Below, one piece after another: positions 3,093 through 53,506 of a stretch of DNA of 64,000 bases (the stretch's first letter is position 1; each line of letters opens with the position of its first letter). This DNA is from a bacterium (GTDB taxonomy: Bacteria; Patescibacteriota; Minisyncoccia; Phycocordibacterales; Phycocordibacteraceae), in NCBI GenBank assembly GCA_021836725.1, contig JAKBHL010000011.1, positions 94,494-158,493 on the forward strand, given 5' to 3'. Below the pieces are notes generated by a model, which had not been told where the DNA came from, searched no databases, and saw only the letters and a list, made by a program, of their open reading frames with translations. The translations under genes and the position numbers were made by a program.

Positions 3093-3445
3093 GAACCCAT
3101 CTCAATCTCCCAAGATGACATCTTGAAGACGCTATCTCACTTTGAATTAGGAAACTCCATTTGCGACACGCTCCTCGCTTCCTGCGACTCGTCGCTCTGT
3201 CCTTGCGCTCTCGTTTTTGGCTCGCAAAGCGCGTAGTATAGCCAAAAAACACCAAGCTCAGCGCCTTGCGGACGGTCGCAAATGGAGTTTCCTAATTCAA
3301 AGTATCTCAAACCCCCCGCGAGGGATATGCGGCAGAAAGAGGCTTACGGAGCGTGACGACGCGAGTACGAGCCGCTTTTTGAGCACAAAAAGACGGCGTA
3401 CTCCTTTCTGCAGCATACCCGAGCGGGGAAGTTTGAGACGGGTTC
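3093..3445. mobile_element. MITE-like palindromic repeat, copy 1 (composite: core element plus nested ~30-nt inverted repeats at 3138-3168/3280-3310 and small palindrome CAAGATGACATCTTG)
   Basis: Termini GAACCCATCTCAA ... GTTTGAGACGGGTTC; core GGATATGCGGCAGAAAGAGGCTTACGGAGCG...GAGTACGAGCCGCTTTTTGAGCACAAAAAGACGGCGTACTCCTTTCTGCAGCATACC shared with 6 other loci. Confidence 0.75.
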
Positions 3446-8088: not shown

Positions 8089-8486
8089 GCGACCGCGTCG
8101 GCGATTTCATCATCCGTCTGCAAAATGCCGCGCGCATCGGGAAGCGCGACGTCGGCGTGCCGTATTCCGGGCATCTTTTCGCTATCGCTAAAAAACTGAA
8201 GGAACTCGGTTTCCTTACCGCGGTCGAAGTGAAAACGAAAGAGGGCGAAGGCGTAAAGAAGCTGTTTACCGCGACGCTCGCTTACGACGAGCGCGGGCTC
8301 CCGAAATTGCGCGGCGTGAAGCGCGTGAGCAAACCGGGCCGCCGGCTCTATGCGGCGCATACATCTGCGCATCGGGTGAAAGGCGGCACCGGCGCGCGCA
8401 TCCTTTCTTCCTCGAGCGGTATCGTCTCCGACAGAGAGGCGCGCAAGAATAAGGTCGGCGGCGAAGAGCTTTTCGAAATCTGGTAA
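8082..8486 (+). CDS. rpsH: 30S ribosomal protein S8
   Basis: [16 protein letters not shown]... typical S8 N-terminus; overlaps rpsN stop. Confidence 0.92.
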
Positions 8487-8499
8487 TACAGACACCACC

Positions 8500-9030
8500 A
8501 TGAGCCGCCTCGCAAAAAAGCCGATAGCGATAGGGAAAACCGCAGTCCTCGTGGAGGGCGGGGTACTTTCCGTGAAAGGCGCCAAGGGCGCGCTTACCAA
8601 ACGCATACACCCGGCGGTCGCCATTGCGGTCGATGAGAACGGCGTCTCGATCACGCCGAAAGACCGTTCGCGCCTCGCCAAGGCGCTCACCGGCACGTTC
8701 GCTTCGCATGTGAAAAACATGATGGCCGGCGTCGAGACGCCCTACGTGAAGAAACTCATTCTCGAAGGCGTCGGCTATCGTGTCGAAGTCAAAGGAAGCG
8801 ATATCGTCTTGTCCGTCGGTTTCTCCCACACGGTCGCGCTCAAGATACCGGCGGATGTCTCGGCAACAGTCGAAAAGAACGTTATAAAAATCGAAAGCAT
8901 AAACAAAGAGTCGCTCGGACAATTTGCGGCGGACATACGGCGCGTGAAGCCGCCCGAACCGTACCTGGGGAAGGGCATCCGTTACGAAGGAGAAGTGATC
9001 CGCCGCAAACAAGGCAAGAAAGCCGCTTAA
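8500..9030 (+). CDS. rplF: 50S ribosomal protein L6
   Basis: MSRLAKKPIAIG...KGIRYEGEVIRRK typical L6. Confidence 0.93.
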   Translation: MSRLAKKPIAIGKTAVLVEGGVLSVKGAKGALTKRIHPAVAIAVDENGVSITPKDRSRLAKALTGTFASHVKNMMAGVETPYVKKLILEGVGYRVEVKGSDIVLSVGFSHTVALKIPADVSATVEKNVIKIESINKESLGQFAADIRRVKPPEPYLGKGIRYEGEVIRRKQGKKAA

Positions 9031-13252: not shown

Positions 13253-13837
13253 ATGGCACACAAGAATCCGAAGGAAGAACGCACGTACGTGATGATAAAG
13301 CCCGACGGAGTGAAAAAGGGGCTGGTCGGCGAGATTATCAAGCGTTTCGAGCAGCGCGATCTCAAGATCGTCGCTCTCGAGATGTTTCAGCCGACGTTCG
13401 AGCAGATCGATACGCATTATCCGAAAGATGCCGCGTGGGTGAAGCGCCTCGGCGAGAAGACGCTCGCTACCTATGAAAAGTATCAGTTTGATGCGATGGA
13501 GGATTTCGGTACGGCCGCTCCCGAAGAGATCGGCCCTGAAATACGGAAATGGCTCGTCGATTACATGCTCTCCGCTCCTCTCGTGAAGATGGTGGTCGAA
13601 GGCACGCACGCGGTCGACATGGTGCGTAAGATCTGCGGCCCGACGATGCCGTATCAAGCCGATATGGGCACCATCCGCGGAGATTTTTCCAATGATTCCC
13701 CCGCCATCGCGAACGCCGAGAAACGCGCGGTCGCGAACATCGTTCACGCGTCCGAGACGCCCGAGGAAGCGGCGCACGAGATTGAGCACTGGTTCGGGAA
13801 GAGCACCCTCCACCGCTACAAACGGCACGGCGATTAG
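13253..13837 (+). CDS. ndk: Nucleoside diphosphate kinase with ~45-aa internal insertion
   Basis: ERTYVMIKPDGV and NIVHASE (active-site His) motifs; 194 aa vs ~140 typical. Confidence 0.85.
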   Translation: MAHKNPKEERTYVMIKPDGVKKGLVGEIIKRFEQRDLKIVALEMFQPTFEQIDTHYPKDAAWVKRLGEKTLATYEKYQFDAMEDFGTAAPEEIGPEIRKWLVDYMLSAPLVKMVVEGTHAVDMVRKICGPTMPYQADMGTIRGDFSNDSPAIANAEKRAVANIVHASETPEEAAHEIEHWFGKSTLHRYKRHGD

Positions 13838-13991
13838 AACCCATCCCAAAACCCCCGCCTCCCCCGCGAAGGGTATGCGGCAGAAAGAGGCTCTCGGAGC
13901 CCGACGGGGCGAGAGGCGAGCCGCTTTTAGAGCAGAAAAAGACAGCGTACTCCTTTCTGTCGCATACCCGAGGGGGTTTTGGGATGGGTTC
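13838..13991. mobile_element. MITE-like palindromic repeat, copy 2 (canonical; perfect 20-nt TIRs GAACCCATCCCAAAACCCCC / GGGGGTTTTGGGATGGGTTC)
   Basis: Begins immediately after ndk TAG stop (TAGAACCC); core shared with other copies. Confidence 0.85.
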
Positions 13992-18241: not shown

Positions 18242-18775
18242 ATGAAAATCGTCGCCCTCTCGGGAAGTTTGCGAAAGGATTCTTACAACACGATGCTTCT
18301 GCGCTCATGTGCGGAGCTTGCTCCGGCGAACATGGAAATCGAGCTAGTGGGTATCGGCGATCTGCCGCTCTACAATTCCGATTTGGAAGCGGCGTATCCG
18401 GCTGCGGCGCAGGCGCTCAAAGATGCGGTGAATGCGGCCGATGGCCTCATCATCGCGACACCGGAGTACAACCGCTCGATCTCAGGCGTTCTGAAGAACG
18501 CCATTGATTGGCTGAGCCGGCCGTACGGGCAGAACTCTTTCGCCCGCAAGCCGGTGCTCGTCGCCGGCGTTTCGATAGGGAAGATCGGCACTGCCGTCGC
18601 GCAGAGCCACTTGAAGCAAATCATGACATACCTCGATGCAAATCTTATCGGTCAGCCAGAACTGTATCTCGGGCCCGCTGCCGAGCTCTTCGACGCGTCG
18701 GGGAAGCTTACGAATGACTCGACGAAAGAACTGCTCGCGAAAGCGCTCGGCGCGCTCCTTGAGCGCGCGTCCTAG
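18242..18775 (+). CDS. NADPH-dependent FMN reductase family (SsuE/YieF/ChrR-like)
   Basis: MKIVALSGSLRKDSYN...ATPEYNRSISGVLKNAIDW flavodoxin-like signature. Confidence 0.85.
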   Translation: MKIVALSGSLRKDSYNTMLLRSCAELAPANMEIELVGIGDLPLYNSDLEAAYPAAAQALKDAVNAADGLIIATPEYNRSISGVLKNAIDWLSRPYGQNSFARKPVLVAGVSIGKIGTAVAQSHLKQIMTYLDANLIGQPELYLGPAAELFDASGKLTNDSTKELLAKALGALLERAS

Positions 18776-18925
18776 AACCCATCTCAAAACCCCCGCTCGG
18801 GTATGCGGCAGAAAGGAGTACGCCGTCTTTTTCTGCTCTAAAAGCAGCTCGAACTTACGCCGTCGCGCTCCATAAGCCTCTTTCTGCCGCATACCTCTCG
18901 CGGGGATATAAGGTTTTGAAATGAT
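18775..18925. mobile_element. MITE-like palindromic repeat, copy 3 (opposite orientation of core)
   Basis: Starts at the TAG stop of the upstream gene (TAGAACCCATCTCAAAACCCCC); right end GGTTTTGAAATGAT. Confidence 0.8.
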
Positions 18926-19622: not shown

Positions 19623-20192
19623 ATGCCGCCCGAGATGACCGATGAAGAAATCGTCCGCCGGACACTGCTCGACAAGGAAGCATTTACGCCCCTCATCGAA
19701 CGGTATGAAGCGAAACTCACGCGTTATCTCGAACGGCTAGGGGTCGGCGTCCGCGAAGATCGTGAAGACATCCTGCAGAATGCCTTTATCAAGGCATACA
19801 GGAACCTCAACAGTTTCGATCAGACGCTCGCATTTTCCTCGTGGATGTACCGCATCGCGCATAATGAGGCGATGAGTTTCTTCCGCTCCCGGCATGCGCG
19901 TCCGCAGGTGGTGCTCGACGAGGGGAGCGAAACGCTCCTTACGGAATTGCGGGATGAGGATTCGGATACGGCGCATCTTGCGGAGCTCCGGCTCTCGCGC
20001 GAGGAACTCGCAAAGGCGTTCACGGCGCTTACGCCCGTGCAGCGAGACGTCCTCACGCTCCGTTTTTTTGAAGATCGGTCATATGCCGAGATATCCGATA
20101 TCCTTGAAGTGCCGACGGGGACGGTCTCAACGCTCCTGTATCGCGCTAAACGGGCTCTGCGCGAAGCGCTTCCTGAACCATTTTCACTATGA
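19623..20192 (+). CDS. ECF-type RNA polymerase sigma-70 factor
   Basis: Region 2 (SWMYRIAHNEAMSFFR) and region 4 (SYAEISDILEVPTGTVSTLLYRAKRAL) motifs. Confidence 0.88.
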   Translation: MPPEMTDEEIVRRTLLDKEAFTPLIERYEAKLTRYLERLGVGVREDREDILQNAFIKAYRNLNSFDQTLAFSSWMYRIAHNEAMSFFRSRHARPQVVLDEGSETLLTELRDEDSDTAHLAELRLSREELAKAFTALTPVQRDVLTLRFFEDRSYAEISDILEVPTGTVSTLLYRAKRALREALPEPFSL

Positions 20193-21070
20193 TGCACGAC
20201 GAACAAAAAGACGACCAGCTCGCTCGAAAGGTGCTCGAACGCATCAGCGGCGAACATCTCGTTCCGCGCCCGCGCTGGGAATTCATATTCAAGAATTATT
20301 TTTTCTGGATATTCGGCGCGTTCGCGGTCGCGCTGAGCGCTCTCGCATTTTCCGCGATGCTCTTCGATATCCAGAACGTCGACTGGCGTCTCTCAGCCGC
20401 TACGCACGCGAACTTCCTTGCTTTCTTCCTTGAGGCGGCACCCTTCCTCTGGGCAGGCGCTCTCATACTTTTCATACTCGTCGGCTACGCGAATGTGCGC
20501 CGGACGGCGCACGGCTATCGTTACTCACTCGCCGTTATCGCGCTCGGCGCGGTGCTCGCTTCTCTGGTGCTGGGCAGCGCCCTTTACGCGAGCGGTCTTG
20601 GCGGCGAGATCGAGGAAGCGATTGGCGACCATCCGCCCTTCTACCGTCCTATTCTTGTTGAAGAGCGCTCCTGGTGGCTTGCGCCGGAAAAAGGCCTCTT
20701 AGGCGGACGCGTAATCTCGCTTGCGCCGGATAACGCTTCCTTCGCACTCCGCGACTTCAAGGGGCATCTGTGGCAGGTCGAAACCGGCGACTTGCGCAAT
20801 GCCGATTTTACAGCCGTGCTGCGCGGCGGCATCGTCCGTATCGTCGGCGTACCGGTGGCGGCGACCAGTTCAACTTTCCATGCCTGTTTCGTATTTCCCT
20901 GGGAGATCCGGTATGGTTTTTTCGGCAATTTTTTCCACGCGCCGTCCATGCCGCGCCCGCCGCTGTCCGCGTCCACCAGTGAAAGGAGCATCACGACGCC
21001 GCGCAGCGAACTCTGCAAGGGCATCCGCCCCTACCGGCAGCTTCGTAGCATCGACGAGACCCGCTTCTAG
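20189..21070 (+). CDS. Putative membrane anti-sigma factor (ATGA overlap with sigma gene); C-terminus runs into MITE copy 4
   Basis: Cotranscribed with ECF sigma, 3-4 TM helices; the last ~60 aa are low-complexity and lie immediately upstream of the MITE, whose first bases give the TAG stop. Confidence 0.55.
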   Translation: MMHDEQKDDQLARKVLERISGEHLVPRPRWEFIFKNYFFWIFGAFAVALSALAFSAMLFDIQNVDWRLSAATHANFLAFFLEAAPFLWAGALILFILVGYANVRRTAHGYRYSLAVIALGAVLASLVLGSALYASGLGGEIEEAIGDHPPFYRPILVEERSWWLAPEKGLLGGRVISLAPDNASFALRDFKGHLWQVETGDLRNADFTAVLRGGIVRIVGVPVAATSSTFHACFVFPWEIRYGFFGNFFHAPSMPRPPLSASTSERSITTPRSELCKGIRPYRQLRSIDETRF

Positions 21071-21215
21071 AACCATTTCAAAACTCAGCATTTCCCCGAA
21101 GGGTGTGCGACAGAAAGAGGCTTACGGAGCGCGACGGCGCGAGTACGAGCCGCTTTTTGAGCACAAAAAGACGGCGTACTCCTTTCTGCCGCACACCCTT
21201 CGGGGGTCTGTCTTC
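21070..21215. mobile_element. MITE-like palindromic repeat, copy 4
   Basis: GAACCATTTCAAAAC...core identical to copy 1 over ~100 nt. Confidence 0.8.
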
Positions 21216-21372: not shown

Positions 21373-21798
21373 ATGGCTTATATGGCGAAAACACTCTCCC
21401 TCATCTTCGGCGTTATCTTGGTGCTCTTCGGGCTTCTCGGATTCATCTCGAATCCACTCGTCGGCGCCAATGCGCTGTTCGTCGCAGACGGGGCTCACAA
21501 TCTCATCCACATCATTCTCGGCGCGATCTTGCTCGCGGTCGCTCTCTGGGCCAGTGAAAGCTCCGTGCTGTGGCTCAAGCTCGTCGGTGTCATCACGTTT
21601 CTCCTCGGTCTCATAGGGGTCCTCACCGTTCCCGCTATCGGCGGGACGCTGCTTGGCATCGCCGGAACGAACGGGGCTTCAAACTGGCTCAACCTCATCG
21701 CCGGTGTGCTTATATTTGCCGCCGGGAAATACGGCAAAGATGACGCGCGGAACGTCATGCCGCCGGTGCAATCTTCAGGCCCGCAACCCCAGATGTGA
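21373..21798 (+). CDS. DUF4383 family small membrane protein
   Basis: LIFGVILVLFGLLGFI...HNLIHIILG pattern characteristic of DUF4383. Confidence 0.7.
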   Translation: MAYMAKTLSLIFGVILVLFGLLGFISNPLVGANALFVADGAHNLIHIILGAILLAVALWASESSVLWLKLVGVITFLLGLIGVLTVPAIGGTLLGIAGTNGASNWLNLIAGVLIFAAGKYGKDDARNVMPPVQSSGPQPQM

Positions 21799-21815: not shown

Positions 21816-21952
21816 AACCCCCAATCCCCGTCGGATATGCGACAGAAAGGAGTACGCTGTCTTTTCCTTCTGAAAAAGCAGCTCGTACTCGCACCGGCGC
21901 ACTCCGTAAGCCTCTTTCTGCCGCATACCCGAGCGGGGGTTTGGGATGGGTT
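21816..21952. mobile_element. MITE-like palindromic repeat, copy 5
   Basis: TAGAACCCCCAATCCCCGTCGG...GGGGGTTTGGGATGGGTT termini. Confidence 0.8.
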
Positions 21953-26341: not shown

Positions 26342-26523
26342 AACCCATTTCAAACCCCATCTTCTCCTAAGATGTCATCTTAGGAGATTTGACCGGCCTC
26401 CGCGAGAGGTATGCGGCAGAAAGAGGCTTACGGAGCGTGACGACGCGAGTACGAGCCGCTTTTTGAGCACAAAAAGACGGCGTACTCCTTTCTGCCGCAT
26501 ACCCGAGCGGGGGTTTTCTGTCC
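26341..26523. mobile_element. MITE-like palindromic repeat, copy 6 (with nested 40-nt palindrome CTCCTAAGATGTCATCTTAGGAG)
   Basis: AAACCCATTTCAAACCCC left end overlapping the TAA stop of the upstream gene; right end abuts stop of MFS gene on the other strand. Confidence 0.8.
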
Positions 26524-27690
26524 CTAGCGGGAATCTTTTATGAGAAGTGTCGTTCCCGCGCCGGCGATGGCGATGAATCCGCCGGTGAGCACGAAGAGGA
26601 TTTGATAATTACCGAAAAAGAGGATCAAGCTCCCCGCAAGCGGCGCGACGAGATCCGCCAGGGGCCAGATACCGCGGAAGATATTCACCGAATTCACGTC
26701 CTGTTCGGAAACCCGCCGGAAAAAATGTATCTCGGTCATGCTTTCAATAAACGCCGCACCGACGCGTGAGATGATGAGGATGCCGAGGATCAGGATGAAC
26801 GGAGAAGCCGCGGAAAGCGCGCCGATTGAGGCGAGCGCGCCGCCCGCAATGAGAAATCCCGCAAACATAAGCTCTTTCTCCCCGAGAAACCGATCGGCGA
26901 TCCACCCCGCCGGATATTCGATGAGCACATAGGGTATGAGCATTATTGAGAACATTTTGCCGAGGCTTGACCAGGGTATGCCGAGCGCGCTGTGGAGATA
27001 TACCGGAACGTAGAGCGGCATCCAGACGTAAAAGAGATACAGGAGAAGATGAGCGAACGTAACCGACGCGAGATCGCGGTCGTGCGCTATGCAAAAGAGC
27101 GCATCGCGCATGCGTGATAGTTTGGGAGGTTTGCCTTTAGGGAGAGCGCGGGCGGCGAAGAGGACGATGAACGGCACAAGCGCCGCTGAGGCGGCGAGGA
27201 ATACGCGGCCGTAGTCATTTGAATGCGCGAGAAGCGCGCCCATGAGAAGCGGTGCCGCAAGTGCGGCGATATTCCATGCGGTAAGGAAAGTCGCTCGGAC
27301 GCGACCGGTCGTACCCTCCTGCGCGATAGTCGCTTCCAGGAGCAGGTCAAGCTGGTAGTACAGGAAGGGTTGCAGCGCTACGGTGACGGCGATAAGCAGA
27401 ATGCCGGCGATAGCGCCCGGAGATGCCGCGAGCGCGAAGAGCGCGACCATTTCCGCGATTGCAAATACGAGCGCGAGCTGTTGCGCGCCGTAGCGCGCAA
27501 CCAGGCGCGGGAGATAGGGGAAAAGCAGAACCGCGCCGAGAGCGCCGAGAGCGATCACGAGACCGGCATCCGCTTCCGGCATGAATGCGGAAAGGTAGGG
27601 GAGCAGGATATAGATGATGAGGGTCGCGAAAAGCGAGAAGAAAAAATTCCCGACGGCGAGGATGACACGCGGACGCATCGCCTCGAGCAT
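26524..27690 (-). CDS. Major facilitator superfamily transporter
   Basis: 12 predicted TM helices, MFS-like loop motifs. Confidence 0.8.
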   Translation of the reverse strand: MLEAMRPRVILAVGNFFFSLFATLIIYILLPYLSAFMPEADAGLVIALGALGAVLLFPYLPRLVARYGAQQLALVFAIAEMVALFALAASPGAIAGILLIAVTVALQPFLYYQLDLLLEATIAQEGTTGRVRATFLTAWNIAALAAPLLMGALLAHSNDYGRVFLAASAALVPFIVLFAARALPKGKPPKLSRMRDALFCIAHDRDLASVTFAHLLLYLFYVWMPLYVPVYLHSALGIPWSSLGKMFSIMLIPYVLIEYPAGWIADRFLGEKELMFAGFLIAGGALASIGALSAASPFILILGILIISRVGAAFIESMTEIHFFRRVSEQDVNSVNIFRGIWPLADLVAPLAGSLILFFGNYQILFVLTGGFIAIAGAGTTLLIKDSR

Positions 27691-39739: not shown

Positions 39740-41512
39740 ATGAATCTTCTCGGACTGCTTCTTGATAAAGGGCTCCTCTCTTCGACCGACCGAGCGGCAG
39801 TCGAAGCCGCGCTCGCAAAAAAAATCCCTCTGGAGAATGCGCTCGCCGAGCACGGCATCTCTCTCAAAGACGCGCTTGCCGCCGCGGGAGAAGCATATGG
39901 GCTTCCGACGCGCATACTCGGCGATCCTCCCGCAGCCGAAGAAGCGTTCAGCTATATCCCGATAGACTCCGCGCGCCACTACGGATTCGTACCGCTCGAC
40001 GTAGTGGACGGCGCGCTTGAAGTGGGTATCACCGATCCCGACAACATCGAAGCGCTCGACGCGTTGCAGTTCATTTCGGGACAGACCGGCGTTCCCTACA
40101 AGACTTTTCTTATCACGAAACAGGATTTTGACCGCGTATTGAATGCGTACCAAAATCTTTCGGGCGAGATTGGCAGCGCGCTTTCCGAATATGAGACGAC
40201 CACGAAACCCGCTCCTGCTGCCGCGCCCGCCCCGTCCGAATCGGACTCCGCCCTCGACGAAAAGCCGCTGGTCCTCACGGGTGCTCATGAGGTTTTGAAA
40301 GAGGACGCGCCGGTGACAAAAATCGTCTCGACGATATTGCGCTATGCCATTGAGGGACACGCATCCGACATTCACATCGAACCGTCGCCGGGCAAGACGC
40401 GCGTTCGTTTCCGCACCGATGGGGATCTGCACACGTCTTTGGAGCTTCCGGCGAAAATGCACGAAGCGGTGATCGCCCGGGTGAAGATACTCGCGAAGCT
40501 GCGCCTCGACGAGAAAAGAAAGCCGCAGGACGGACGTTTCTCGGCAGTTGTCGAGAAACGCCGTATTGATTTCCGCGTCTCCACCTTTCCGACAGAATTC
40601 GGCGAAAAGGTCGTGATGCGTATTCTCGATCAATCGGCTACCACCGCGTCCCTGGAGTCGATCGGGCTTACCGAGGAGCAGCTCGCCGTAGTCCGCGGCA
40701 TGATGAAAGTCCCGTACGGCATCATCCTCATCGCCGGACCGACCGGTTCGGGAAAATCAACGACGCTTTTCGCGATGCTCTCCGAACTTGATCGCGAGAC
40801 CGCAAACGTCGTCTCGCTCGAAGACCCTGTCGAATACGAGATCCCCGGCGTCGCGCAGAGCCAAGTGCGCCCCGAAATAGGCTATACGTTCGCGAGCGGG
40901 CTCCGTTCCGTCTTGCGCCAGGACCCGGACGTCATCATGGTCGGGGAGATCCGCGATAAAGAGACCGCCGCGCTTGCCGTCCAAGCGGCGCTCACCGGCC
41001 ACCTCGTTTTCTCCACCATCCATACCAATACCGCCGCCGGCGCGATACCGAGGCTCATCGACATGGGCGTCGATCCCTTCCTTGTCGCGCCGACGTTGGT
41101 CGCGGTCATCGGCCAACGCCTTGTGCAAAAACTCTGTACGGGCGCGGGCAAGCCTTTTGCGATTACGGACAGCGTTAAAGAGTTTTTGGATCGGCAATTT
41201 GCGGATCTACCGCAGGAGTACCGCAAAAAATTGCCTCCTTTCAAGGAGTTTTATCACGCCAGCCCGACGGCGGAGTGTCCGAACGGTACGCGCGGGCGCA
41301 TGGCCGTCTTCGAAATACTGCGTATGGACAAGAAGATCGAACAGGTCGTGTTGAAAGCGCCGGTCGAGGAAAATATCTACGCCGCCGCACGCCTGGGCGG
41401 CATGCTCACGATGCGTGAAGACGCCATCGTAAAAGCGCTCGCGGGCGAGATTCCTTTCGAGGAGGTGAATACGCTCGGCGGAGAACTCTTCTCGGCAGGG
41501 GATAGTGCCTGA
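39740..41512 (+). CDS. pilB: Type IV pilus assembly ATPase PilB/GspE family
   Basis: Walker A GPTGSGKST, Asp box, His box, N-terminal GSPII domains; Zn motif reduced to 2 Cys. Confidence 0.92.
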   Translation: MNLLGLLLDKGLLSSTDRAAVEAALAKKIPLENALAEHGISLKDALAAAGEAYGLPTRILGDPPAAEEAFSYIPIDSARHYGFVPLDVVDGALEVGITDPDNIEALDALQFISGQTGVPYKTFLITKQDFDRVLNAYQNLSGEIGSALSEYETTTKPAPAAAPAPSESDSALDEKPLVLTGAHEVLKEDAPVTKIVSTILRYAIEGHASDIHIEPSPGKTRVRFRTDGDLHTSLELPAKMHEAVIARVKILAKLRLDEKRKPQDGRFSAVVEKRRIDFRVSTFPTEFGEKVVMRILDQSATTASLESIGLTEEQLAVVRGMMKVPYGIILIAGPTGSGKSTTLFAMLSELDRETANVVSLEDPVEYEIPGVAQSQVRPEIGYTFASGLRSVLRQDPDVIMVGEIRDKETAALAVQAALTGHLVFSTIHTNTAAGAIPRLIDMGVDPFLVAPTLVAVIGQRLVQKLCTGAGKPFAITDSVKEFLDRQFADLPQEYRKKLPPFKEFYHASPTAECPNGTRGRMAVFEILRMDKKIEQVVLKAPVEENIYAAARLGGMLTMREDAIVKALAGEIPFEEVNTLGGELFSAGDSA

Positions 41513-41538: not shown

Positions 41539-41946
41539 ATGGCATACCGCGTGTATCTCGTTGACGATGACAGGTTCCTGCTTGATCTCTATGCCGTTAA
41601 GTTCAAGAATGCCGGTCACGAAGTGAGCGCGTTTGGCGGCGGCGAAGATCTCCTCGCTGCGCTGCGCAAAGAAGGCGCGGTCACGCCCGACGCGATCCTG
41701 CTCGACATCATCATGCCCGGCATGAACGGTTTTGAAACGCTTGAAACGATACGAAAGGAAGGTCTCGCAAAGGGTGCGAAGATAATCATCCTCTCAAATC
41801 AAGGCCAAGATTCTGACTTCGAGAAATCAAAAGAACTCGTCGCGGACGGTTACATCATAAAGGCGTCCGCTATCCCTTCCGAAGTGCTTGCAGAGACCGT
41901 GCGCATCATCGAAGCGGGCGCATCCCGCGCGGAAGAGTCCCGTTGA
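41539..41946 (+). CDS. Stand-alone response-regulator receiver (CheY-like) domain
   Basis: VYLVDDDRFLL...LLDIIMPGMNG...KIIILSN conserved REC residues. Confidence 0.85.
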   Translation: MAYRVYLVDDDRFLLDLYAVKFKNAGHEVSAFGGGEDLLAALRKEGAVTPDAILLDIIMPGMNGFETLETIRKEGLAKGAKIIILSNQGQDSDFEKSKELVADGYIIKASAIPSEVLAETVRIIEAGASRAEESR

Positions 41947-41950
41947 TCGT

Positions 41951-43012
41951 ATGGCTGCCGAAAAACGTCTCGAAGAACTTCTCAATATCGTTGTCACCGA
42001 AGGCGGTTCCGACTTGCATCTTTTTGCCGGCGGATCGCCGGTGATTCGCGTTTCCAGCACGTTGATTCCTCTTACTAAGTATCCCGCATTTACCGCCGAG
42101 GAGACCGAAGCGATGCTCAAGAGCATCGTGCCGCCGGAGCGATGGGATTCATTCGAGAAGAATCAGACCATCGACCTGTCCTATGCGTACCGGGCGGACA
42201 TGCGCTTCCGCGTGAACGGCTACCGCGTGCAGGGGGGGACCGCCCTTGCGTTCCGGCTCATACCGCATGCTGTCCGCACGTTTACCGAACTCAATCTGCC
42301 TTCCGTGCTCGAAGTCTTTACGCAGCGCGAACAGGGGTTCTTCCTCGTGGTGGGGCCGGTGGGGCAGGGCAAATCAACGACGCTCGCCGCGATGATAAAC
42401 CGCATCAATGATTCGCGCGCCGAGCACATCCTCACCATCGAGGATCCGGTTGAATACCTTTTTACGCCGAAAAAATCCCTCATCCATCAGCGCGAAGTCC
42501 ATATCGATGCGCCGGATTTCGGCACGGCGCTCCAGAGCGCTTTCCGCGAGGACGTCGACGTGATCATGGTCGGCGAGATGCGCGATTACGAGACCATCTC
42601 TTCGGCGGTGACCGCTGCTGAGACCGGCCACCTGGTCTTTTCCACCCTCCATACCAACAACGCCGCGCAGACCATTGATCGCATCATCGACATGTTCCCG
42701 TCCGAACAGCAGGGGCAGGTTCGGGTGCAGCTGGCCGGTTCTCTCGCGGGTATTTTCTCCCAACGGCTCATTCCGCGGGTGTCCGGCGGGCTTATCCCGG
42801 CATACGAACTCCTGATTAATAACAACGCAGTGGCGAACCTTATCCGGGAAGCGCAGACTCACGAGATAAGCGCGGTCATCCAAACTTCTTCGCAGGAGGG
42901 CATGATCGACCTTGATCGCATGCTTGCGGATCTCGTGCATCGGGGCGAAGTGACAGTCGAGCACGCCTACGAACACGCGATGGATCCGAAAACTTTTGAA
43001 CGCTATCTCTAA
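41951..43012 (+). CDS. pilT: Twitching-motility retraction ATPase PilT
   Basis: GPVGQGKSTTLAAMI Walker A, PilT-type AIRNLIRE-like motif (AVANLIREAQ). Confidence 0.9.
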   Translation: MAAEKRLEELLNIVVTEGGSDLHLFAGGSPVIRVSSTLIPLTKYPAFTAEETEAMLKSIVPPERWDSFEKNQTIDLSYAYRADMRFRVNGYRVQGGTALAFRLIPHAVRTFTELNLPSVLEVFTQREQGFFLVVGPVGQGKSTTLAAMINRINDSRAEHILTIEDPVEYLFTPKKSLIHQREVHIDAPDFGTALQSAFREDVDVIMVGEMRDYETISSAVTAAETGHLVFSTLHTNNAAQTIDRIIDMFPSEQQGQVRVQLAGSLAGIFSQRLIPRVSGGLIPAYELLINNNAVANLIREAQTHEISAVIQTSSQEGMIDLDRMLADLVHRGEVTVEHAYEHAMDPKTFERYL

Positions 43013-44222
43013 AACTATGCTCTTCAAATACCGAGCGATCGACCAGGACGGGCACGAACGGGAGGGAACCATAGAAGCTCCTTCCCAGGAGGTCGCAGTC
43101 TCTTCGCTTCAGCGGCGCAATCTCATCATATCGGTCATCGAGTCTTCGGAAAAACATTCATTACTGGAGCTTGAAATCCCGATGTTCAACCGGATTTCAA
43201 ACAAAGAAATAGTCATCCTTTCGCGTCAGATATCAACCCTATTTGAAGCGCAGGTCTCCGCGCTGCGCGTCTTCCGCCTCCTCGCCGCCGAAGTCGACAA
43301 TAAAAAACTCGCAACCGTTCTTTCCACAGTCGGCGATGATATCCAGGGCGGAAGCCCGATAAGCAAAGCGCTCGCGCGCCACCCGAAAGTCTTCGCGCCG
43401 TTCTATGTAAACATGGTCCGTGCGGGAGAGGAGTCGGGCAAATTATCGGAAACGTTCATCTACCTCGCCGACTACCTTGACCGCTCCTACGACGTCATGA
43501 GCAAGGCAGAGAATGCGCTCATCTATCCCGCATTCGTCATCGCGGTCTTCTTCGGCGTGATGGCGCTCATGCTCACGCTCGTCATCCCGAAAATAAGCGC
43601 CGTCCTCATCGATTCTGGACAACCTGTGCCGCTCTATACCCGTATTGTCATCGGCTTCTCTGATTTCCTTGTTAACTACGGCATCTTCCTGCTCATCGCG
43701 CTCATCGCGCTCGGTTTCTACGTGTGGCAGCTCGGAAAGACCGAGCGCGGCAAGCTCATTCTCGACGGCCTGAAGATTTCGGTACCCTATGTCGGCGATC
43801 TCTACAAAAAACTCTATCTCGCGCGCATCGCGGACAATTTCTCCACCATGCTCATTTCCGGCGTCTCGGTCGTCCAAGCGCTCGATATCTCGGCGTCCGT
43901 CGTGGGCAATTCCGTCTATGCAAAGATACTTTCTGAAGTGACCGCGGATGTGAAAGGGGGTTCCTCGATATCCGATGCTTTCGGCAAGCACCCGGAGATG
44001 CCGGGCATCATGGTCGCAATGACGAAAGTCGGCGAAGAAACCGGCGAGCTCGGGAAAATCCTCATTACGCTTGCCAAATTCTACAACCGCGAAGTGAATA
44101 ATGCGGTCGACACGCTCGTCGGCCTCATCGAACCGATCATGATCGTCCTTTTGGGCGTGGGCGTGGGTACGCTCTTGGCCGCAGTTTTGCTCCCGATTTA
44201 TAATCTTGCCGGAGCCATATAG
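42996..44222 (+). CDS. pilC: Type IV pilus inner-membrane platform protein PilC/GspF
   Basis: Two T2SSF repeats, ~400 aa. Confidence 0.88.
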   Translation: MNAISKTMLFKYRAIDQDGHEREGTIEAPSQEVAVSSLQRRNLIISVIESSEKHSLLELEIPMFNRISNKEIVILSRQISTLFEAQVSALRVFRLLAAEVDNKKLATVLSTVGDDIQGGSPISKALARHPKVFAPFYVNMVRAGEESGKLSETFIYLADYLDRSYDVMSKAENALIYPAFVIAVFFGVMALMLTLVIPKISAVLIDSGQPVPLYTRIVIGFSDFLVNYGIFLLIALIALGFYVWQLGKTERGKLILDGLKISVPYVGDLYKKLYLARIADNFSTMLISGVSVVQALDISASVVGNSVYAKILSEVTADVKGGSSISDAFGKHPEMPGIMVAMTKVGEETGELGKILITLAKFYNREVNNAVDTLVGLIEPIMIVLLGVGVGTLLAAVLLPIYNLAGAI

Positions 44223-44332: not shown

Positions 44333-44788
44333 ATGTACAAAAATCGTTCTCAAGGTTTCACCCTCATCGAACTTCTCGTCGTGATCGCCATCATCGGCAT
44401 CCTCTCGGCGGTCGTGCTCGCTTCGCTCAACACCGCCCGCCAGAAAGGCAACGATGCCGCCATCCAATCCGACCTCTCGACCATCCAGACTCAGGCCGAG
44501 ATCTACTACGGCGGCGCGGGCAACAACAGCTACGGAACAGTGGCCGGTAGCGCTTGCAATACGGCAAGTACGCTCTTTGCCGATGCGACGATCATAAAAG
44601 CGGTCAATGGCGCTCAGAATGCTGCTGGCACCTCCAATCCGCTTGTCTGTGGTAATTCCACTTCGGCCTATGCGGTTGAAGCGAAACTCACCGCTCCGGC
44701 GACAGCGACGTACTGGTGCGTCGACTCGACCGGCACCGCGAAGCAGGAGACTACGGCATCTGCCGCCGGCTTCACGGTCTGTCCGTAA
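44333..44788 (+). CDS. Type IV pilin (major pilin candidate), paralog 1
   Basis: QGFTLIELLVVIAIIGILSAVVLASLNTARQKG N-terminus. Confidence 0.88.
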   Translation: MYKNRSQGFTLIELLVVIAIIGILSAVVLASLNTARQKGNDAAIQSDLSTIQTQAEIYYGGAGNNSYGTVAGSACNTASTLFADATIIKAVNGAQNAAGTSNPLVCGNSTSAYAVEAKLTAPATATYWCVDSTGTAKQETTASAAGFTVCP

Positions 44789-44819: not shown

Positions 44820-45272
44820 ATGAAAGTACAAAGGCAACGCGGTTTCACCCTCATCGAACTTCTCGTCGTGATCGCCATCATCGGCATCCTCTCGGCGGTC
44901 GTGCTCGCTTCGCTCAACACCGCCCGCCAGAAAGGCAACGATGCCGCCATCCAATCCGACCTCTCGACCATCCAGACTCAGGCCGAGATCTACTACGGCG
45001 GCGCGGGCAACAACAGCTATGGCGCAGCTCAATCGGCTTCCTGTGCCGCGACGACGGGCACCCTCTGGTCGGATCCGACGATCGTCAAGGCCGTTACAGG
45101 CGCTCAGAACGCCTCGGGTGCGGCTGCAAATGTTGTATGTAATAGCACGGCGACCGCCTATGCGATATCGGCTCAGTTGACAGCAGTAAGCGGTACGTGG
45201 TGGTGCGTCGACTCGACCGGCACGGCGAAGCAAGAAACTGCTGCCCTCGGCACTCTCACGGCCTGTCAGTAA
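44820..45272 (+). CDS. Type IV pilin, paralog 2 (5' 179 nt identical to paralog 1)
   Basis: nt 44841-45019 identical to 44354-44532; C-terminal halves diverge. Confidence 0.88.
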   Translation: MKVQRQRGFTLIELLVVIAIIGILSAVVLASLNTARQKGNDAAIQSDLSTIQTQAEIYYGGAGNNSYGAAQSASCAATTGTLWSDPTIVKAVTGAQNASGAAANVVCNSTATAYAISAQLTAVSGTWWCVDSTGTAKQETAALGTLTACQ

Positions 45273-45335: not shown

Positions 45336-46097
45336 ATGCTTTTTCTCCTCACGATCCTATTTTTTGCGCTCGGGGCTATCGTGGCAAGTTTCGTCGGAGT
45401 ACTTGTCGCGCGCCTCAATACCGGTCAGAGTTTTCTTATCGGGCGTTCTCGTTGCGACACGTGCGGCGCGCCGCTTTCGCCGTTCTCACTCATTCCGATC
45501 ATCTCATACGTCGCGCTTGGCGCCCGCGCGCGCTGCTGCGGCGCACGCCTCTCATTCTTCGCGCCTCTCATGGAATTGCTCTTGGGAGGGCTTTTCGCAC
45601 TCGCGTATCTCAAGATCGGTTTTACCGCCGCGCTGCCGTTTATGCTTTTTTCGCTCTCGACGCTCCTCGCGCTCGTCCTCTACGACCTTGCTCACCAAAT
45701 ACTCCCGTCCGTGCTCCTCGGAGCATTCGTCCTTGCGAGCGCTTGCGCGGGATTTTTACCAGCGGAGGATATGAGCGCATTCGGCGTCTCGCTCATGGTC
45801 GCCGGCGCGTTTGCGCTCTTTCTGGCGCTCATCAACCTCCTCTCGCGCGGGCGGGCGATGGGGCTCGCCGACGCGCCGTTTGTGTTCGGACTCGCGCTTC
45901 TGACGGGCCCCGCCGCGCCCGCCGGTTTCATCTCATCGTTTTGGATCGGTGCGGTTATAGGGATAATCGTGTTGGCACGGAGACCGCGAGGTTCTAGAAT
46001 GGGAGTTGAGGTACCGTTTGCGCCTTTCCTCGCCGCCGGTTTCCTCCTCATGTACTTTACTCAATGGAACCCTCTCATCATCGCGGCTTTACGCTGA
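45336..46097 (+). CDS. pilD: Prepilin peptidase (A24 family) PilD
   Basis: N-terminal CDTC...CC zinc-binding region, 6-8 TM helices, conserved Asp-containing loops. Confidence 0.85.
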   Translation: MLFLLTILFFALGAIVASFVGVLVARLNTGQSFLIGRSRCDTCGAPLSPFSLIPIISYVALGARARCCGARLSFFAPLMELLLGGLFALAYLKIGFTAALPFMLFSLSTLLALVLYDLAHQILPSVLLGAFVLASACAGFLPAEDMSAFGVSLMVAGAFALFLALINLLSRGRAMGLADAPFVFGLALLTGPAAPAGFISSFWIGAVIGIIVLARRPRGSRMGVEVPFAPFLAAGFLLMYFTQWNPLIIAALR

Positions 46098-46729
46098 TCG
46101 AACTTCTGGTCGTGTTGGCGATCATGGTCATCCTCACCGCGGTCGTGCTGACCAGCCAAAGCTCTTTCAATAAGACACTCATCCTTGCGAATACCGCATA
46201 CGATGTGGCGCTCACCCTGCGCAGCGCCGAGACCTATGGCCTGGGCAATCGCGTGGCCGGGACCGTAGAAAACGCAGGATACGGCCTCGATTTCCAAAAA
46301 GCGACGCCGGGTTCCTTCACGCTTTTTGCCGATACGTACCCGCCGCCCTCCTCCACAAGCTGTCACCCGACCACCGACCCGACGGCCCCGAACGCCCGCC
46401 CGGGCGACTGCGTGTATGAGGCGAATCAGGGCGAGAAGGTCACCGGTTATACGCTCGGGAATGGCATTACGGTGAGCGATTTTTGCGCCTATACGCCGAA
46501 CACGCTGTCGTGGTCGTGCGCGAATTCCGGTAATCAGGCGCTCACGGTACTCGATATCATTTTCTCGCGCCCGAATCCCGATCCGTTCATGAGCGTAAAC
46601 GGCGCTTATTCGGCATCGTCTCCGGTAACGCAAGCGTGCCTCACCCTTTCCTCTCCGCAGGGCGGCTCGCGCTTCATTTCAGTCGGCGCGTCGGGAGAGA
46701 TAAACGCGACCGCCACCTCATGCCCATGA
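46064..46729 (+). CDS. Pseudopilin/minor pilin with prepilin motif
   Basis: RGFTLIELLVVLAIMVIL N-terminus. Confidence 0.75.
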   Translation: MEPSHHRGFTLIELLVVLAIMVILTAVVLTSQSSFNKTLILANTAYDVALTLRSAETYGLGNRVAGTVENAGYGLDFQKATPGSFTLFADTYPPPSSTSCHPTTDPTAPNARPGDCVYEANQGEKVTGYTLGNGITVSDFCAYTPNTLSWSCANSGNQALTVLDIIFSRPNPDPFMSVNGAYSASSPVTQACLTLSSPQGGSRFISVGASGEINATATSCP

Positions 46730-47244
46730 CCCGCTCCAGAGGATACACGCTCATCGAACTCATCGTCGCGATGGGGCTCTTTTCGCTCATCATGCTGCTG
46801 GCTTCGGGCGCCTACCTCATTCTGATAGGCGCCAACCGGCAAGCGCAGGCCATTTCCACCGGTATCGACAATCTTTCTTTCGCTCTTGAAAGCATGACGC
46901 GCAGCATCCGTACCGGCACGAACTATAACTGCGGCGGCCTGGGCGATTGTCCGAGTGGCGCCAGCAGTTTTTCTGTCGTGGACGATAACGGCGCGTCGGT
47001 CACGTATAGCCTTGTCGGATCCGCGATTCAAAAAATGACGGGCAATACGGCGAGCACGCTCACCGACCCGTCAGTGACTATCTCGTCCTTGACGTTCTAT
47101 GCGTTTGGCACGCATCCGGCGCCGACCGATTACCAGCAAGCGCGCGTTACCATCATCGTTTCAGGCACCGTCTCCTCCGGCCCGGGGAAAACGGAACCGT
47201 TTACGATTGAAACCGGCGCGACAATGCGCGGATCCGATATATGA
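46720..47244 (+). CDS. Pseudopilin/minor pilin (GspJ/PilW-like)
   Basis: RGYTLIELIVAMGLFSLIML N-terminus; internal start within longer ORF. Confidence 0.7.
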   Translation: MPMTRSRGYTLIELIVAMGLFSLIMLLASGAYLILIGANRQAQAISTGIDNLSFALESMTRSIRTGTNYNCGGLGDCPSGASSFSVVDDNGASVTYSLVGSAIQKMTGNTASTLTDPSVTISSLTFYAFGTHPAPTDYQQARVTIIVSGTVSSGPGKTEPFTIETGATMRGSDI

Positions 47245-48005
47245 AAACATTCCACGAGCCTGAAACTCACCCCGACTCCCCGCTCGGGTATGCGACAGAA
47301 AGGAGTACGCCGTCTTTTTGTGCTCAAAAAGCGGCTCGTACTCGCCCCGTCGGGCTCCGTAAGCCTCTTTCTGCCGCATACCTCTCGCGGGGATGCGAGA
47401 GGTTAGAAGCGGGTCTCGGAGAGCGAAGCCAGCTTCGCGGCTTCACGCTCATCGAAGCCATGATCGCCGTAAGCATCCTCGCGCTTGCGGTCGCGGGGCC
47501 TCTGTTCGGCGCGGATCGCGCTATCGTCGCCGCGGAGGGCGCGCGCTACCAGCTCACCGCTTCCTATCTCGCGCAAGAAGGCGTCGAGTACGTGCGCGCG
47601 ATGCGCGATGATGAGTATCTCCTCGCATATCAGGCGGGCGGCACAAACACCTCAAGCGCCGCCTGGACCGACTTCCTTACCGGAACGGACAGCGCGGCCA
47701 TCACCCAATGCCGTTCAATGACCTGCACGCTCGATCCGGCGCTTCCGATGGGCACCGGAAGCGGATTCTCGCTCAACCCCTGTACCGGCAGCGCCTGCAC
47801 GCCGCTCTATCTCGCAAACAACGGTACTACGAACTACTACACCGAGCAGAGCGGCAATGGCGCGATACTACAGCCGTTCACGCGCACGATACAAGCGTTT
47901 ACGGTCTCTTCCACCGAGGAGCGCATCGTCTCGATCGTGTCGTGGAATTTCCATGGTATCCCGTACACAGTTACGGTGATAGACCACCTTACGTCATGGC
48001 AATGA
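47241..48005 (+). CDS. Pseudopilin with prepilin motif; only in-frame start (47241) lies upstream of the MITE, giving a ~65-aa leader read through the element
   Basis: ...LRGFTLIEAMIAVSILALAV prepilin motif at aa ~60; no in-frame ATG/GTG/TTG between MITE and motif. Confidence 0.55.
   Translation: MKTFHEPETHPDSPLGYATERSTPSFCAQKAARTRPVGLRKPLSAAYLSRGCERLEAGLGERSQLRGFTLIEAMIAVSILALAVAGPLFGADRAIVAAEGARYQLTASYLAQEGVEYVRAMRDDEYLLAYQAGGTNTSSAAWTDFLTGTDSAAITQCRSMTCTLDPALPMGTGSGFSLNPCTGSACTPLYLANNGTTNYYTEQSGNGAILQPFTRTIQAFTVSSTEERIVSIVSWNFHGIPYTVTVIDHLTSWQ
47262..47418. mobile_element. MITE-like palindromic repeat, copy 7 (inside the 5' end of the next pseudopilin ORF)
   Basis: CCCCGCTCGGGTATGCGACAGAAAGGAGTACGCC...CTTTCTGCCGCATACCTCTCGCGGGG core. 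Confidence 0.8.
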
Positions 48006-48520
48006 AAAACAAAAATGGCCCCGCGCACATACGCCCCTCCGCGTCTCGGCGGGGGTTCGCGCTCCTCATGGCTCTCATTTTCATGTCGGTGATGCTGAGC
48101 ATCGGCCTCACGCTCGGCTCCCTCGCGTACAAACAGCAAGTGCTCGCTTCCTCGGCCATCGAATCGCAGTATGCGTTTTATGCTGCCGACAGCGCGCTTG
48201 AATGCGCCCTCTATGCCGATCAGCAGCAGAATCTCTTCGCCTATCCTCCGACTACGCCCTCCTCGGCTCCGCTCATGTCCTGCGGTTCGAGCGCGCCGGT
48301 CTCTGCAACCGTACTCTCCTATACTCCAAGCCAGTGGATTATCGCCACACGCCTTTCGCTCGATTCGGGGAAGCATTGCGCGGACGTAACGGTCTATAAA
48401 CCGGCGCTTAGCAGCGGCACGACCTATCTCTTCTCGCAGGGCTACGACGTTCCGTGCGCCACGGTAGCAAGTCCCGGAGGAACGCGCTTTGTATCCCGCG
48501 GTATCAGCGCCCATTACTAG
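47990..48520 (+). CDS. PilX_N-domain pilus assembly protein
   Basis: RRGFALLMALIFMSVMLSIGLTLG typical PilX N-terminal domain. Confidence 0.65.
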   Translation, partial: YVMAMKNKNGPAHIRPSASRRGFALLMALIFMSVMLSIGLTLGSLAYKQQVLASSAIESQYAFYAADSALECALYADQQQNLFAYPPTTPSSAPLMSCGSSAPVSATVLSYTPSQWIIATRLSLDSGKHCADVTVYKPALSSGTTYLFSQGYDVPCATVASPGGTRFVSRGISAHY

Positions 48521-53098: not shown

Positions 53099-53506
53099 GC
53101 GGGGTAGAGGAGAGGTACCTCGGGAGGCTCATGTGAAAACGTGACCCTATCCGGTAACGGGTAGTGGAAAAACTCTCTAAATTGCTGGAATACCGTTAGA
53201 GCTTCTTGTGCTACAGCGCGATCCGAAAGGATGAGCGCGAACGCCTAAAAAACGAGAAGATTCGGCAATCAGCAGCCAAGCCTAGTTTTACTTCGGGGGT
53301 TCCCCCATTCCGATGGGGAAGGCGAACGGCGGAGTGCGAAAGTGAGGACAAAGTCCGAGCGGGAGCAACTCCGGTAAGTGAGACTGGGAAGGTTCAGAGA
53401 CTATAATGGGAGAGTCCTTATGGGATTGTGGTATAGTCCATTCCTGTTGGAAACAGCAGGTGTAAAAGAACCTCCAGACGCCGGTTCGATTCCGGCCCCC
53501 GCAACA
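53099..53506 (+). ncRNA. ssrA: Candidate tmRNA (ssrA), ~400 nt
   Basis: 3' tRNA-like end GCCGG-TTCGATT-CCGGC-CCCCGC-A with 5' GCGGGGT able to form the acceptor stem; promoter upstream and hairpin terminator downstream; tag ORF not confidently identified. Confidence 0.5.

Follow-up and report, generated by a model that had tools for sequence, protein, structure and literature searches.

A MITE-like repeat in frame within the leader-coding segment of a minor pilin gene of a Patescibacteriota bacterium

The window analysed here is a stretch of 64,000 nucleotides (contig JAKBHL010000011.1, positions 94,494 to 158,493) from the genome of an uncultured, ultrasmall bacterium of the Patescibacteriota (Paceibacteria). 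It has a GC content of 58% and carries a type IV pilus cluster, followed downstream by ligA and gatCA. Within the pilus cluster, the open reading frame (ORF) at 47241..48005 on the plus strand (254 codons plus stop, long leader included) encodes a minor (pseudo)pilin of the PilV/GspI class. The leader-coding segment of this gene contains a copy of a palindromic repeat that behaves as a miniature inverted-repeat transposable element (MITE).

The start codon ATG (47241..47243) overlaps the TGA stop of the upstream gene (47242-47244) as tATGA. The leader-coding segment (47241..47441) comprises 67 codons, the last of which encodes Gly67, and is followed by the mature pilin from F68 to Q254 (47442..48002), with a hydrophobic N-terminal helix, Glu at +5 and then a beta-sheet head. 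The features of a class III signal peptide around the cleavage site are present (R66-G67/F68-T-L-I-E72-AMIAVSILALAVAGPLF), including Gly at -1, Phe at +1 and a hydrophobic tract of about 21 residues that reaches its maximum Kyte-Doolittle value of 2.54 at residue 70. The cleavage motif, with R66 at 47436-38 and G67 at 47439-41, begins 65 codons past the ATG. A preliminary description of this DNA had rightly put it far downstream of the start, at a figure of about 60 codons that needs this small correction. Apart from the ATG itself, a scan of codons 1-71 detected no in-frame ATG, GTG, TTG, CTG, ATT, ATC or ATA. The ATG is therefore the sole in-frame start in this segment, as the same description had stated along with its overlap with the preceding stop, and judging from the codons 47241 is the only site from which translation of the gene can begin.

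The leader is hydrophilic, with a net charge of about +4 (11 K/R, 7 D/E) and a maximum Kyte-Doolittle value of 0.07, and the Kyte-Doolittle scan revealed no hydrophobic stretch in it. Read off the sequence, it holds the tryptic peptides TFHEPETHPDSPLGYATER, STPSFCAQK and PLSAAYLSR. The protein scored 28.3 bits against Pfam N_methyl (cutoff 21.2) and 19.8 bits against TIGR02532 (cutoff 16.3), and its structure has the pilin fold, with a long N-terminal helix packed on an antiparallel sheet. It differs from PilV/GspI pilins in scoring 30.3 bits against the PilV equivalog model TIGR02523, below the cutoff of 52.2, and in giving no significant match in a Foldseek search of the PDB. The product is thus best described as PilV/GspI-like, and it represents a clade-specific Paceibacteria family. 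The same ORF with the same leader was found in an independent ENA assembly (P0001; one amino acid differs). Therefore, the long leader is no assembly artefact.

The repeat copy in the leader spans 47259..47406 on the plus strand. It is composed of a core (47278-47394) and outer terminal inverted repeats that are degenerate in this copy, and its right end is TTAG. It covers about 148 of the 198 nt between start and motif, and the remainder, made up of codons 1-6 (47241-47258) at one end and ~11 codons (47407-47438) at the other, is flank unrelated to the MITE. These ORF, core and boundary data agree with the earlier claim that a MITE copy lies in frame in the 5' end of a pseudopilin gene. The intervening codons are free of stops, as had been stated, but they are not entirely MITE sequence. 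The 116-nt core recurs in six further copies in the window, in either orientation and at 90-96% identity (blastn E-values down to 4e-48, far beyond chance), the figure for the copy at 26397 being 95.6%. The repeat families D1/D2 and I1-I16 reported by a repeat search of the window are copies of this same element.

The element is about 148-165 nt long and has no coding capacity of its own. Its terminal inverted arms (CTAGAACCCATCTCAAAACCCCCGCTCGGGTATGCGGCAGAAAG and complement) are long (~45 nt), and full-length copies end in an outer inverted CTAGAACCCATCTCAAAACC... and its complement; the element ends are also given as CTAGAACCCATCTC.... The seven copies in 64 kb are oriented three one way and four the other, and more copies occur in the related loci L001, L005 and L089. 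Nine copies have a Y-shaped fold in common, with compensatory changes at five pairs, and the 221 nt across the pilin copy (47230-47450) fold at -101 kcal/mol (z = -6.4). No Rfam family matched the repeat at the gathering threshold or at a permissive E-value, and a promoter and terminator scan of the repeat found no site. The family has a very restricted distribution. A scan of JGI metagenomes with the repeat core yielded a single partial copy, located at a contig end (L089), and a plasmid search with the core gave no match. Among 5.8 billion protein clusters, the translated repeat peptide was present in only three proteins, namely this pilin in two lineages and P0121. The latter has no Pfam domain, and this pilin gene is the only one to carry the repeat peptide among proteins with any Pfam domain. 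As an additional feature of one copy, a small hairpin CTCCTAAGATGACATCTTAGGAG is found inside one terminal repeat of the copy at 26397 (minus-strand reading, 26513-26545).

The repeat behaves as a MITE by its size, inverted repeats, copy number and orientations. The element ends (CTAG, CTAA, TTAG or CTGG) fit YTAR, and the tetranucleotide is palindromic; for an intact copy, no pair of empty and filled sites was found. The variation of the terminal tetranucleotide (CTAG, CTAA, TTAG) would fit a YTAR target duplication as made by IS5-type elements. A different kind of dispersed structured repeat, either similar to repetitive extragenic palindromes and bacterial interspersed mosaic elements (REP/BIME) or mobilised by a Y1 transposase, would have the same consequence for the pilin gene. 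The covarying internal hairpins would suit such a repeat, and a target-site duplication is inseparable from the palindromic terminal tetranucleotide. No parent insertion sequence turned up in the collection and plasmid scans, the window ORFs not having been searched for one. The pilin copy (core 47278) and the copy at 21091 also have flanking sequence in common, a feature more in keeping with recombination or conversion than with cut-and-paste transposition. However, the length of the inverted arms, the size, the copy number and the presence of both orientations fit a MITE, as does the tetranucleotide variation, which would be expected of a target duplication of the IS5 type, and we regard a repeat of the REP/BIME kind as unlikely.

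The common flank consists of an identical 15-mer, TAGAAGCGGGTCTCG, past the repeat end at 47404-47418 on the plus strand and at 21055-21069 on the minus strand, within about 30 nt that are similar if gaps are allowed. At 21055-21069, the 15-mer runs antisense to the final codons (..IDETRF*) of the gene 20189-21070. One of the two copies seems to be derived from the other, flank included, and the flank suggests recombination or conversion between them.

Elsewhere in the window, each of the other six copies lies between genes and begins 0-15 nt past a stop codon. Two of them, both on the minus strand (3313..3428 and 26397..26512), have convergent genes on either side. The copy at 13862..13977 (minus strand) directly follows ndk (13253-13837), and its terminal TTAG contains the ndk stop (13835-13837). 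Likewise, the terminal CTAG of the copy at 18791..18907 (plus strand) contains the TAG stop (18773-18775) of the gene 18242-18775, and that of the copy at 21091..21206 (minus strand) contains the TAG stop (21068-21070) of the gene 20189-21070. The copy at 21825..21941 (plus strand) lies 15 nt past the stop of the gene 21373-21798. Thus the TAG stops of three genes fall in the terminal (C/T)TAG of the element, which either targets CTAG/TTAG sites at stop codons or now supplies the stops. Large antisense ORFs that run over the copies at 13862 and 21825 were discarded as spurious in favour of ndk and the gene 21373-21798, which are the real genes there. In the pilus operon, all five genes from the pilD-like to the pilX-like gene overlap their neighbours, with no intergenic DNA in between. 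Because of this overlap, a site just past the upstream stop is already in the leader of the next gene. Therefore, given the preference of the repeat for post-stop sites, its location in a leader requires no special targeting.

Homologs of the protein number in the hundreds and occur in metagenome-assembled genomes of Paceibacteria, Kaiserbacteria and other Patescibacteria. A comparison with an ortholog that lacks this MITE copy, as the preliminary description had proposed, was provided by the insert-free locus L008, which has the same ATGA overlap and an 8-residue leader (MNSKLQFG/FTLIE). The ATGA is also found in L001, L006 and L007. The shared start in a gene without the insert identifies ATG 47241 as the ancestral, translationally coupled start and places the insertion within the leader segment. 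Called leaders in 115 orthologs range from 2 to 68 residues, with the window and L001 as the extremes, and most orthologs have leaders of 2-13 aa. Across 89 loci with 359 pilin-like genes, the Gly codon usually has its nearest possible start 3-10 codons upstream, but this distance is 20-47 codons in about two dozen genes and 66 codons only in the window. The recurrence of forced leaders of 20-47 codons suggests that long leaders are tolerated in this clade.

The sister lineage L001-L004 (four independent assemblies), whose mature protein is 96% identical to that of the window, has the repeat at the corresponding site, in inverted orientation. There the copy is read in another frame of the element and is still open, and ATGAAAAC is 66 codons away from the Gly codon in both lineages. 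Core divergence between the window and L001 is about 14%. The opposite orientation may have arisen by inversion in situ, by conversion with an inverted copy as donor or by a separate insertion, all three of which would be expected to give an equal length. Orthologs with a long leader and no MITE had been named in advance as evidence against an element-made leader; the closest comparably long leaders, those of L001-L004, all carry the MITE.

The third related lineage, L005, also has a mature protein 96% identical to that of the window and an inverted copy, so that the repeat is present at this locus in all three. The gene call in L005 starts at a GTG located in the terminal repeat, 10 codons before Gly. 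This call suggests another reading of the window gene, already raised in the preliminary description as an unrecognised start, in which translation begins at a non-canonical codon near the motif, for example the GCG at 47409..47411 on the plus strand. The leader would then be short and the upstream frame irrelevant. The family consensus at that place is GAGATGGG, and the G-run before it could serve as a ribosome-binding site. However, in a three-way alignment the codon aligned with the L005 GTG is GCG in the window and ATA in L001, and no in-frame NTG or ATH occurs within 66 codons upstream of Gly67. Furthermore, L005 is a contig of 1.5 kb with an upstream gene unrelated to the pilin operon, and the assembly may be chimeric, with the left half joined at the repeat. 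For canonical and near-cognate codons, a hidden start close to the motif is thus excluded, and we consider it very improbable that the gene is translated from any other codon there. We also considered L005 as an ancestor free of the MITE or with an intergenic MITE, and dropped it on account of the same unrelated gene and short contig. Only its right half was used in the comparisons.

The dN/dS ratio over 188 mature codons was 0.054 between the window and L001 (dS 0.31) and 0.041 between the window and L005 (dS 0.47). When the changes were polarised with the three sequences, the window branch showed 15 synonymous and 2 non-synonymous substitutions, for a neutral expectation of roughly 4 and 13. 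The corresponding counts were 17 and 4 for the L001 branch and 30 and 6 for the L005 branch. Therefore, the ORF at 47241 is under purifying selection.

These values bear on the possibility that the gene was recently inactivated, in that the insertion parted its body from a usable start or blocks its translation, and that the open frame is a coincidence in a GC-rich repeat. About one third of the frames over the repeats are open by chance (13 of 42, ~31%). The 95.6% identity of the core to the copy at 26397 is compatible with a young insertion or with conversion, and the GTG start used by L005 is GCG in the window. On the other hand, the terminal branch of the window shows strong constraint (15 synonymous versus 2 non-synonymous changes), with a pairwise dN/dS of about 0.05. 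The locus contains the repeat in all three lineages, with frame and openness kept in two opposite orientations, and both the ancestral ATGA start and the downstream overlapping gene are intact. We therefore judge inactivation, which the preliminary description had offered as one outcome, to be improbable. Substitutions that might have removed stops from the pilin copy relative to the copy at 21091 were also considered, and were set aside because the latter is likewise open in the same frame.

The probable explanation, in our view, is a functional minor pilin gene that bears a non-coding palindromic MITE-like repeat of ~148 nt in its leader. The repeat would be read through, the 67-residue leader would be cut off by a PilD-like peptidase, and the insertion would be close to neutral. 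In such a scenario, the repeat, which usually lands past stops, would have inserted where that site is the leader of the next gene. With the copy free of stops and the frame kept, ribosomes arriving from the coupled ATG 47241 would read through it, giving a prepilin with a hydrophilic, net-positive leader of 67 residues. The leaders of class III signal peptides stay in the cytoplasm and are cut after the Gly on the cytoplasmic face, and this Gly alone is critical (PMC4471445). If the topology is the same here, the long leader would remain cytoplasmic, the PilD-like peptidase would cut after Gly67, and the mature pilin would be unchanged. The added peptide would thus leave with the leader, which is the simplest reason for the persistence of an in-frame, stop-free copy. 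Of the outcomes raised in the preliminary description, the unusually long class III leader is accordingly the one favoured by the ancestral start, the lack of an alternative start and purifying selection. Because the chance of an open frame is not negligible, the case rests on four points taken jointly: the start is the ancestral one, no other start is available, the frame is kept in both orientations, and the gene shows selection.

The enzyme expected to cut off the long leader is the PilD-like prepilin peptidase encoded in the same operon (45336..46097, plus strand; Pfam A24_N_bact, E = 1.3e-21), and relatives keep this gene order. By eye, its YDLAHQILP and GLAD motifs look similar to the two catalytic Asp motifs.

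Several points weigh against this explanation. The PilD-like protein has no match to Pfam Peptidase_A24 at E below 0.01 and none in NCBIfam, its catalytic domain being too divergent for the Peptidase_A24 model at that threshold. The 67-residue leader falls outside the 6-26 residues of characterised pilins and is about 2.5 times as long (PMC4471445). The very stable fold of the repeat could impede ribosomes. A single open copy is not significant alone, given the share of frames that are open anyway. The identity of the core to another copy could mean that the insertion is recent and that the selection signal partly predates it. Among the relatives found, none without the MITE was closer than 76% identity. 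Finally, translation through the repeat and cleavage of the leader are steps that we infer from the sequence.

The fold also raises the possibility that the repeat is kept for a function, as an mRNA hairpin that tunes translational coupling, mRNA stability or minor-pilin stoichiometry, with the long leader as a by-product. The conserved Y-shaped fold and its compensatory pairs are consistent with this idea, which is compatible with a read-through and processed leader. In addition, the element has diverged less between the window and L001 (about 14%) than the synonymous sites of the flanking gene (dS 0.31), and unrelated hairpin cassettes, one type of them strongly covarying, occur at the same leader position in related genomes. 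However, compensatory changes are equally explained by the needs of transposition or DNA structure, and the similarity of copies can stem from recent spread or gene conversion. The six other copies lie in unrelated places in either orientation, and nothing resembling a terminator or promoter was seen in the repeat. A retained function of this kind therefore seems doubtful to us.

Other palindromic inserts occupy this spot in many orthologs. Prominent among these hairpin cassettes of related genomes are two recurrent palindromic units of 28 codons, which we call type A (TKRVSQKRDSDFSFANECREQT..GFT) and type B (TKRAERQTHV.MHLSEASAGRKAVRGFT). Both are preceded directly by a relic G-F-T and close with a second, new G-F-T ahead of L-I-E. 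They occur as single, tandem or hybrid units. In L013, L090 and L091, each of the three consecutive minor-pilin genes has them in its leader, and no unit was found in the major pilins of these loci. The in-frame leader units are located at 8426-8500 and 9837-10012 in L013; 7563-7713 and 9019-9192 in L090; 7662-7734, 8420-8491 and 9017-9110 in L091; 3008-3082 in L006; 3029-3103 in L007; 9929-10012 in L009; and 9904-9977 in L011. Throughout 1.44 Mb of related loci, the units were present in pilin leaders only, plus one reverse-oriented copy. The latter (L091 5687-5756, minus strand) is a type A/B-like unit in the spacer that separates pilC from the major pilin gene, still in the pilus cluster, and the units are thus not strictly confined to leaders.

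The type B hairpin stays paired even as its sequence, and with it the encoded peptide, varies freely. In this hairpin, 96.7% of cells are paired and 9 of 12 pairs show changes on both sides, in a set of six sequences only. None of 500 shuffles reached this value, and slid controls were 21-44% paired. Selection on the type B unit thus appears to act on the structure of the nucleic acid, not on the peptide. In the window, the non-MITE leader remnant GGAGAGCGAAGCCAGC (47407..47438, plus strand) resembles the right end of the type A cassette, and its first 12 nt are common with the flank of the copy at 21091. The right end in L001 (CAGGGAGCAAATCCAGC) matches that in L006 (CAGGGAGCAAACCCAGC) at 16 of 17 positions. 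The window and L001 keep what appear to be the two type A ends around the MITE, which is probably nested in an older cassette.

These data lead us to the tentative idea, which we hold with rather less than even confidence, that the leader stretch of Paceibacteria minor-pilin genes is a dedicated niche for structured nucleic-acid cassettes, of which the window MITE is only the largest occupant. The type A and B cassettes could be selfish elements that target the motif or cis-regulatory hairpins that set minor-pilin stoichiometry. As a separate observation, the adjacent minor-pilin genes of L077 (9394 and 10004) share a leader insert of ~30 residues, M[RK]PSLKTYNLKLETSEKTLSFWSFTLHASRSKIRG, and a third gene (8660) has a different long leader. 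The L077 pair is a further instance of paralogs with a common leader insert.

In-frame insertions of MITEs are established for Rickettsia palindromic elements (RPEs; Ogata et al. 2000, reviewed in PMC10969869) and for intragenic ERIC and BOX elements (PMC10969869). The repeat of the window is similar to RPEs in being a palindromic repeat of ~100-150 bp that lies in frame in a protein gene and is tolerated by the protein. However, RPE families are frequent in ORFs and extend the mature protein, whereas six of the seven copies of the window family are intergenic and the peptide lies in a segment that is cleaved off. A preference of the family for ORFs, which characterises RPEs, is thus absent here. 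Like MITEs of the ERIC, BOX and Correia types, the window repeat is a small, non-autonomous inverted repeat that is mostly intergenic, is at times read in an ORF and can supply stops or starts (PMC10969869), but it has no sequence relationship to them and differs in its host from the candidate phyla radiation (CPR) and in its site in a class III leader.

Among pilins, the prepilins of type IVb/Flp systems, with leaders of about 15-30 aa (PMC4471445), also have a hydrophilic leader ending in Gly, F-T-L-I-E, a hydrophobic helix and a peptidase in the locus. The leader of the window pilin differs in its length of 67 aa and in being mostly repeat-derived rather than evolved, and its mature part is that of a type IVa-like minor pilin. 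A literature search found no description of a repeat insertion in the leader of a class III signal peptide. In-frame MITEs are therefore known as such, and what is new here is the combination of an otherwise intergenic family, a CPR host and a site in a cleaved leader.

The locus offers a clean natural example of how a mobile element can survive in a packed operon that looks essential, by occupying the one part of a protein that is discarded. Provided that the product is processed, prepilin peptidases tolerate leaders well beyond the 6-26 residues of characterised pilins. Processing would also matter for tools that predict pilins and for gene annotation in CPR genomes, in which genes of this kind could be mistaken for truncated or dead ones. 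Pili are presumed to serve these episymbionts in host contact. The hairpin cassettes in the minor-pilin leaders of Paceibacteria point to an undescribed class of leader-embedded elements, and this pattern is the lead most worth following.

The remaining genes of the pilus cluster include those for a PilB-like ATPase (39740-41512), with a response regulator gene listed next, a PilT-like ATPase (41888-43012) and a PilC-like protein (42996-44222). They are followed by two nearly identical major pilin genes in tandem on the plus strand (44333-44788 and 44820-45272). A 187-nt 5' segment of these two genes (repeat D3) is 98% identical, and a second common block is located near their 3' ends (D6), which indicates either recent duplication or ongoing gene conversion. 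After the PilD-like gene, four minor pilin genes stand in a row. The one directly upstream of the ORF discussed here (46720..47244, plus strand) has the leader MPMTRSRG/YTLIE, and its stop overlaps the start at 47241. The one downstream (47996..48520, plus strand) overlaps the 3' end of the ORF and is called PilX-like from a weak PilX_N match (E = 0.0011) and synteny.

Elsewhere in the window, a group I intron was detected at 53121-53460 on the plus strand (Rfam, 60 bits), followed at 53479-53496 by a weak match to a transfer-messenger RNA (tmRNA) 3' end (E = 8e-4). ARAGORN found no tmRNA. Judging from these two matches, the segment 53121-53496 may be an intron-interrupted ssrA gene.

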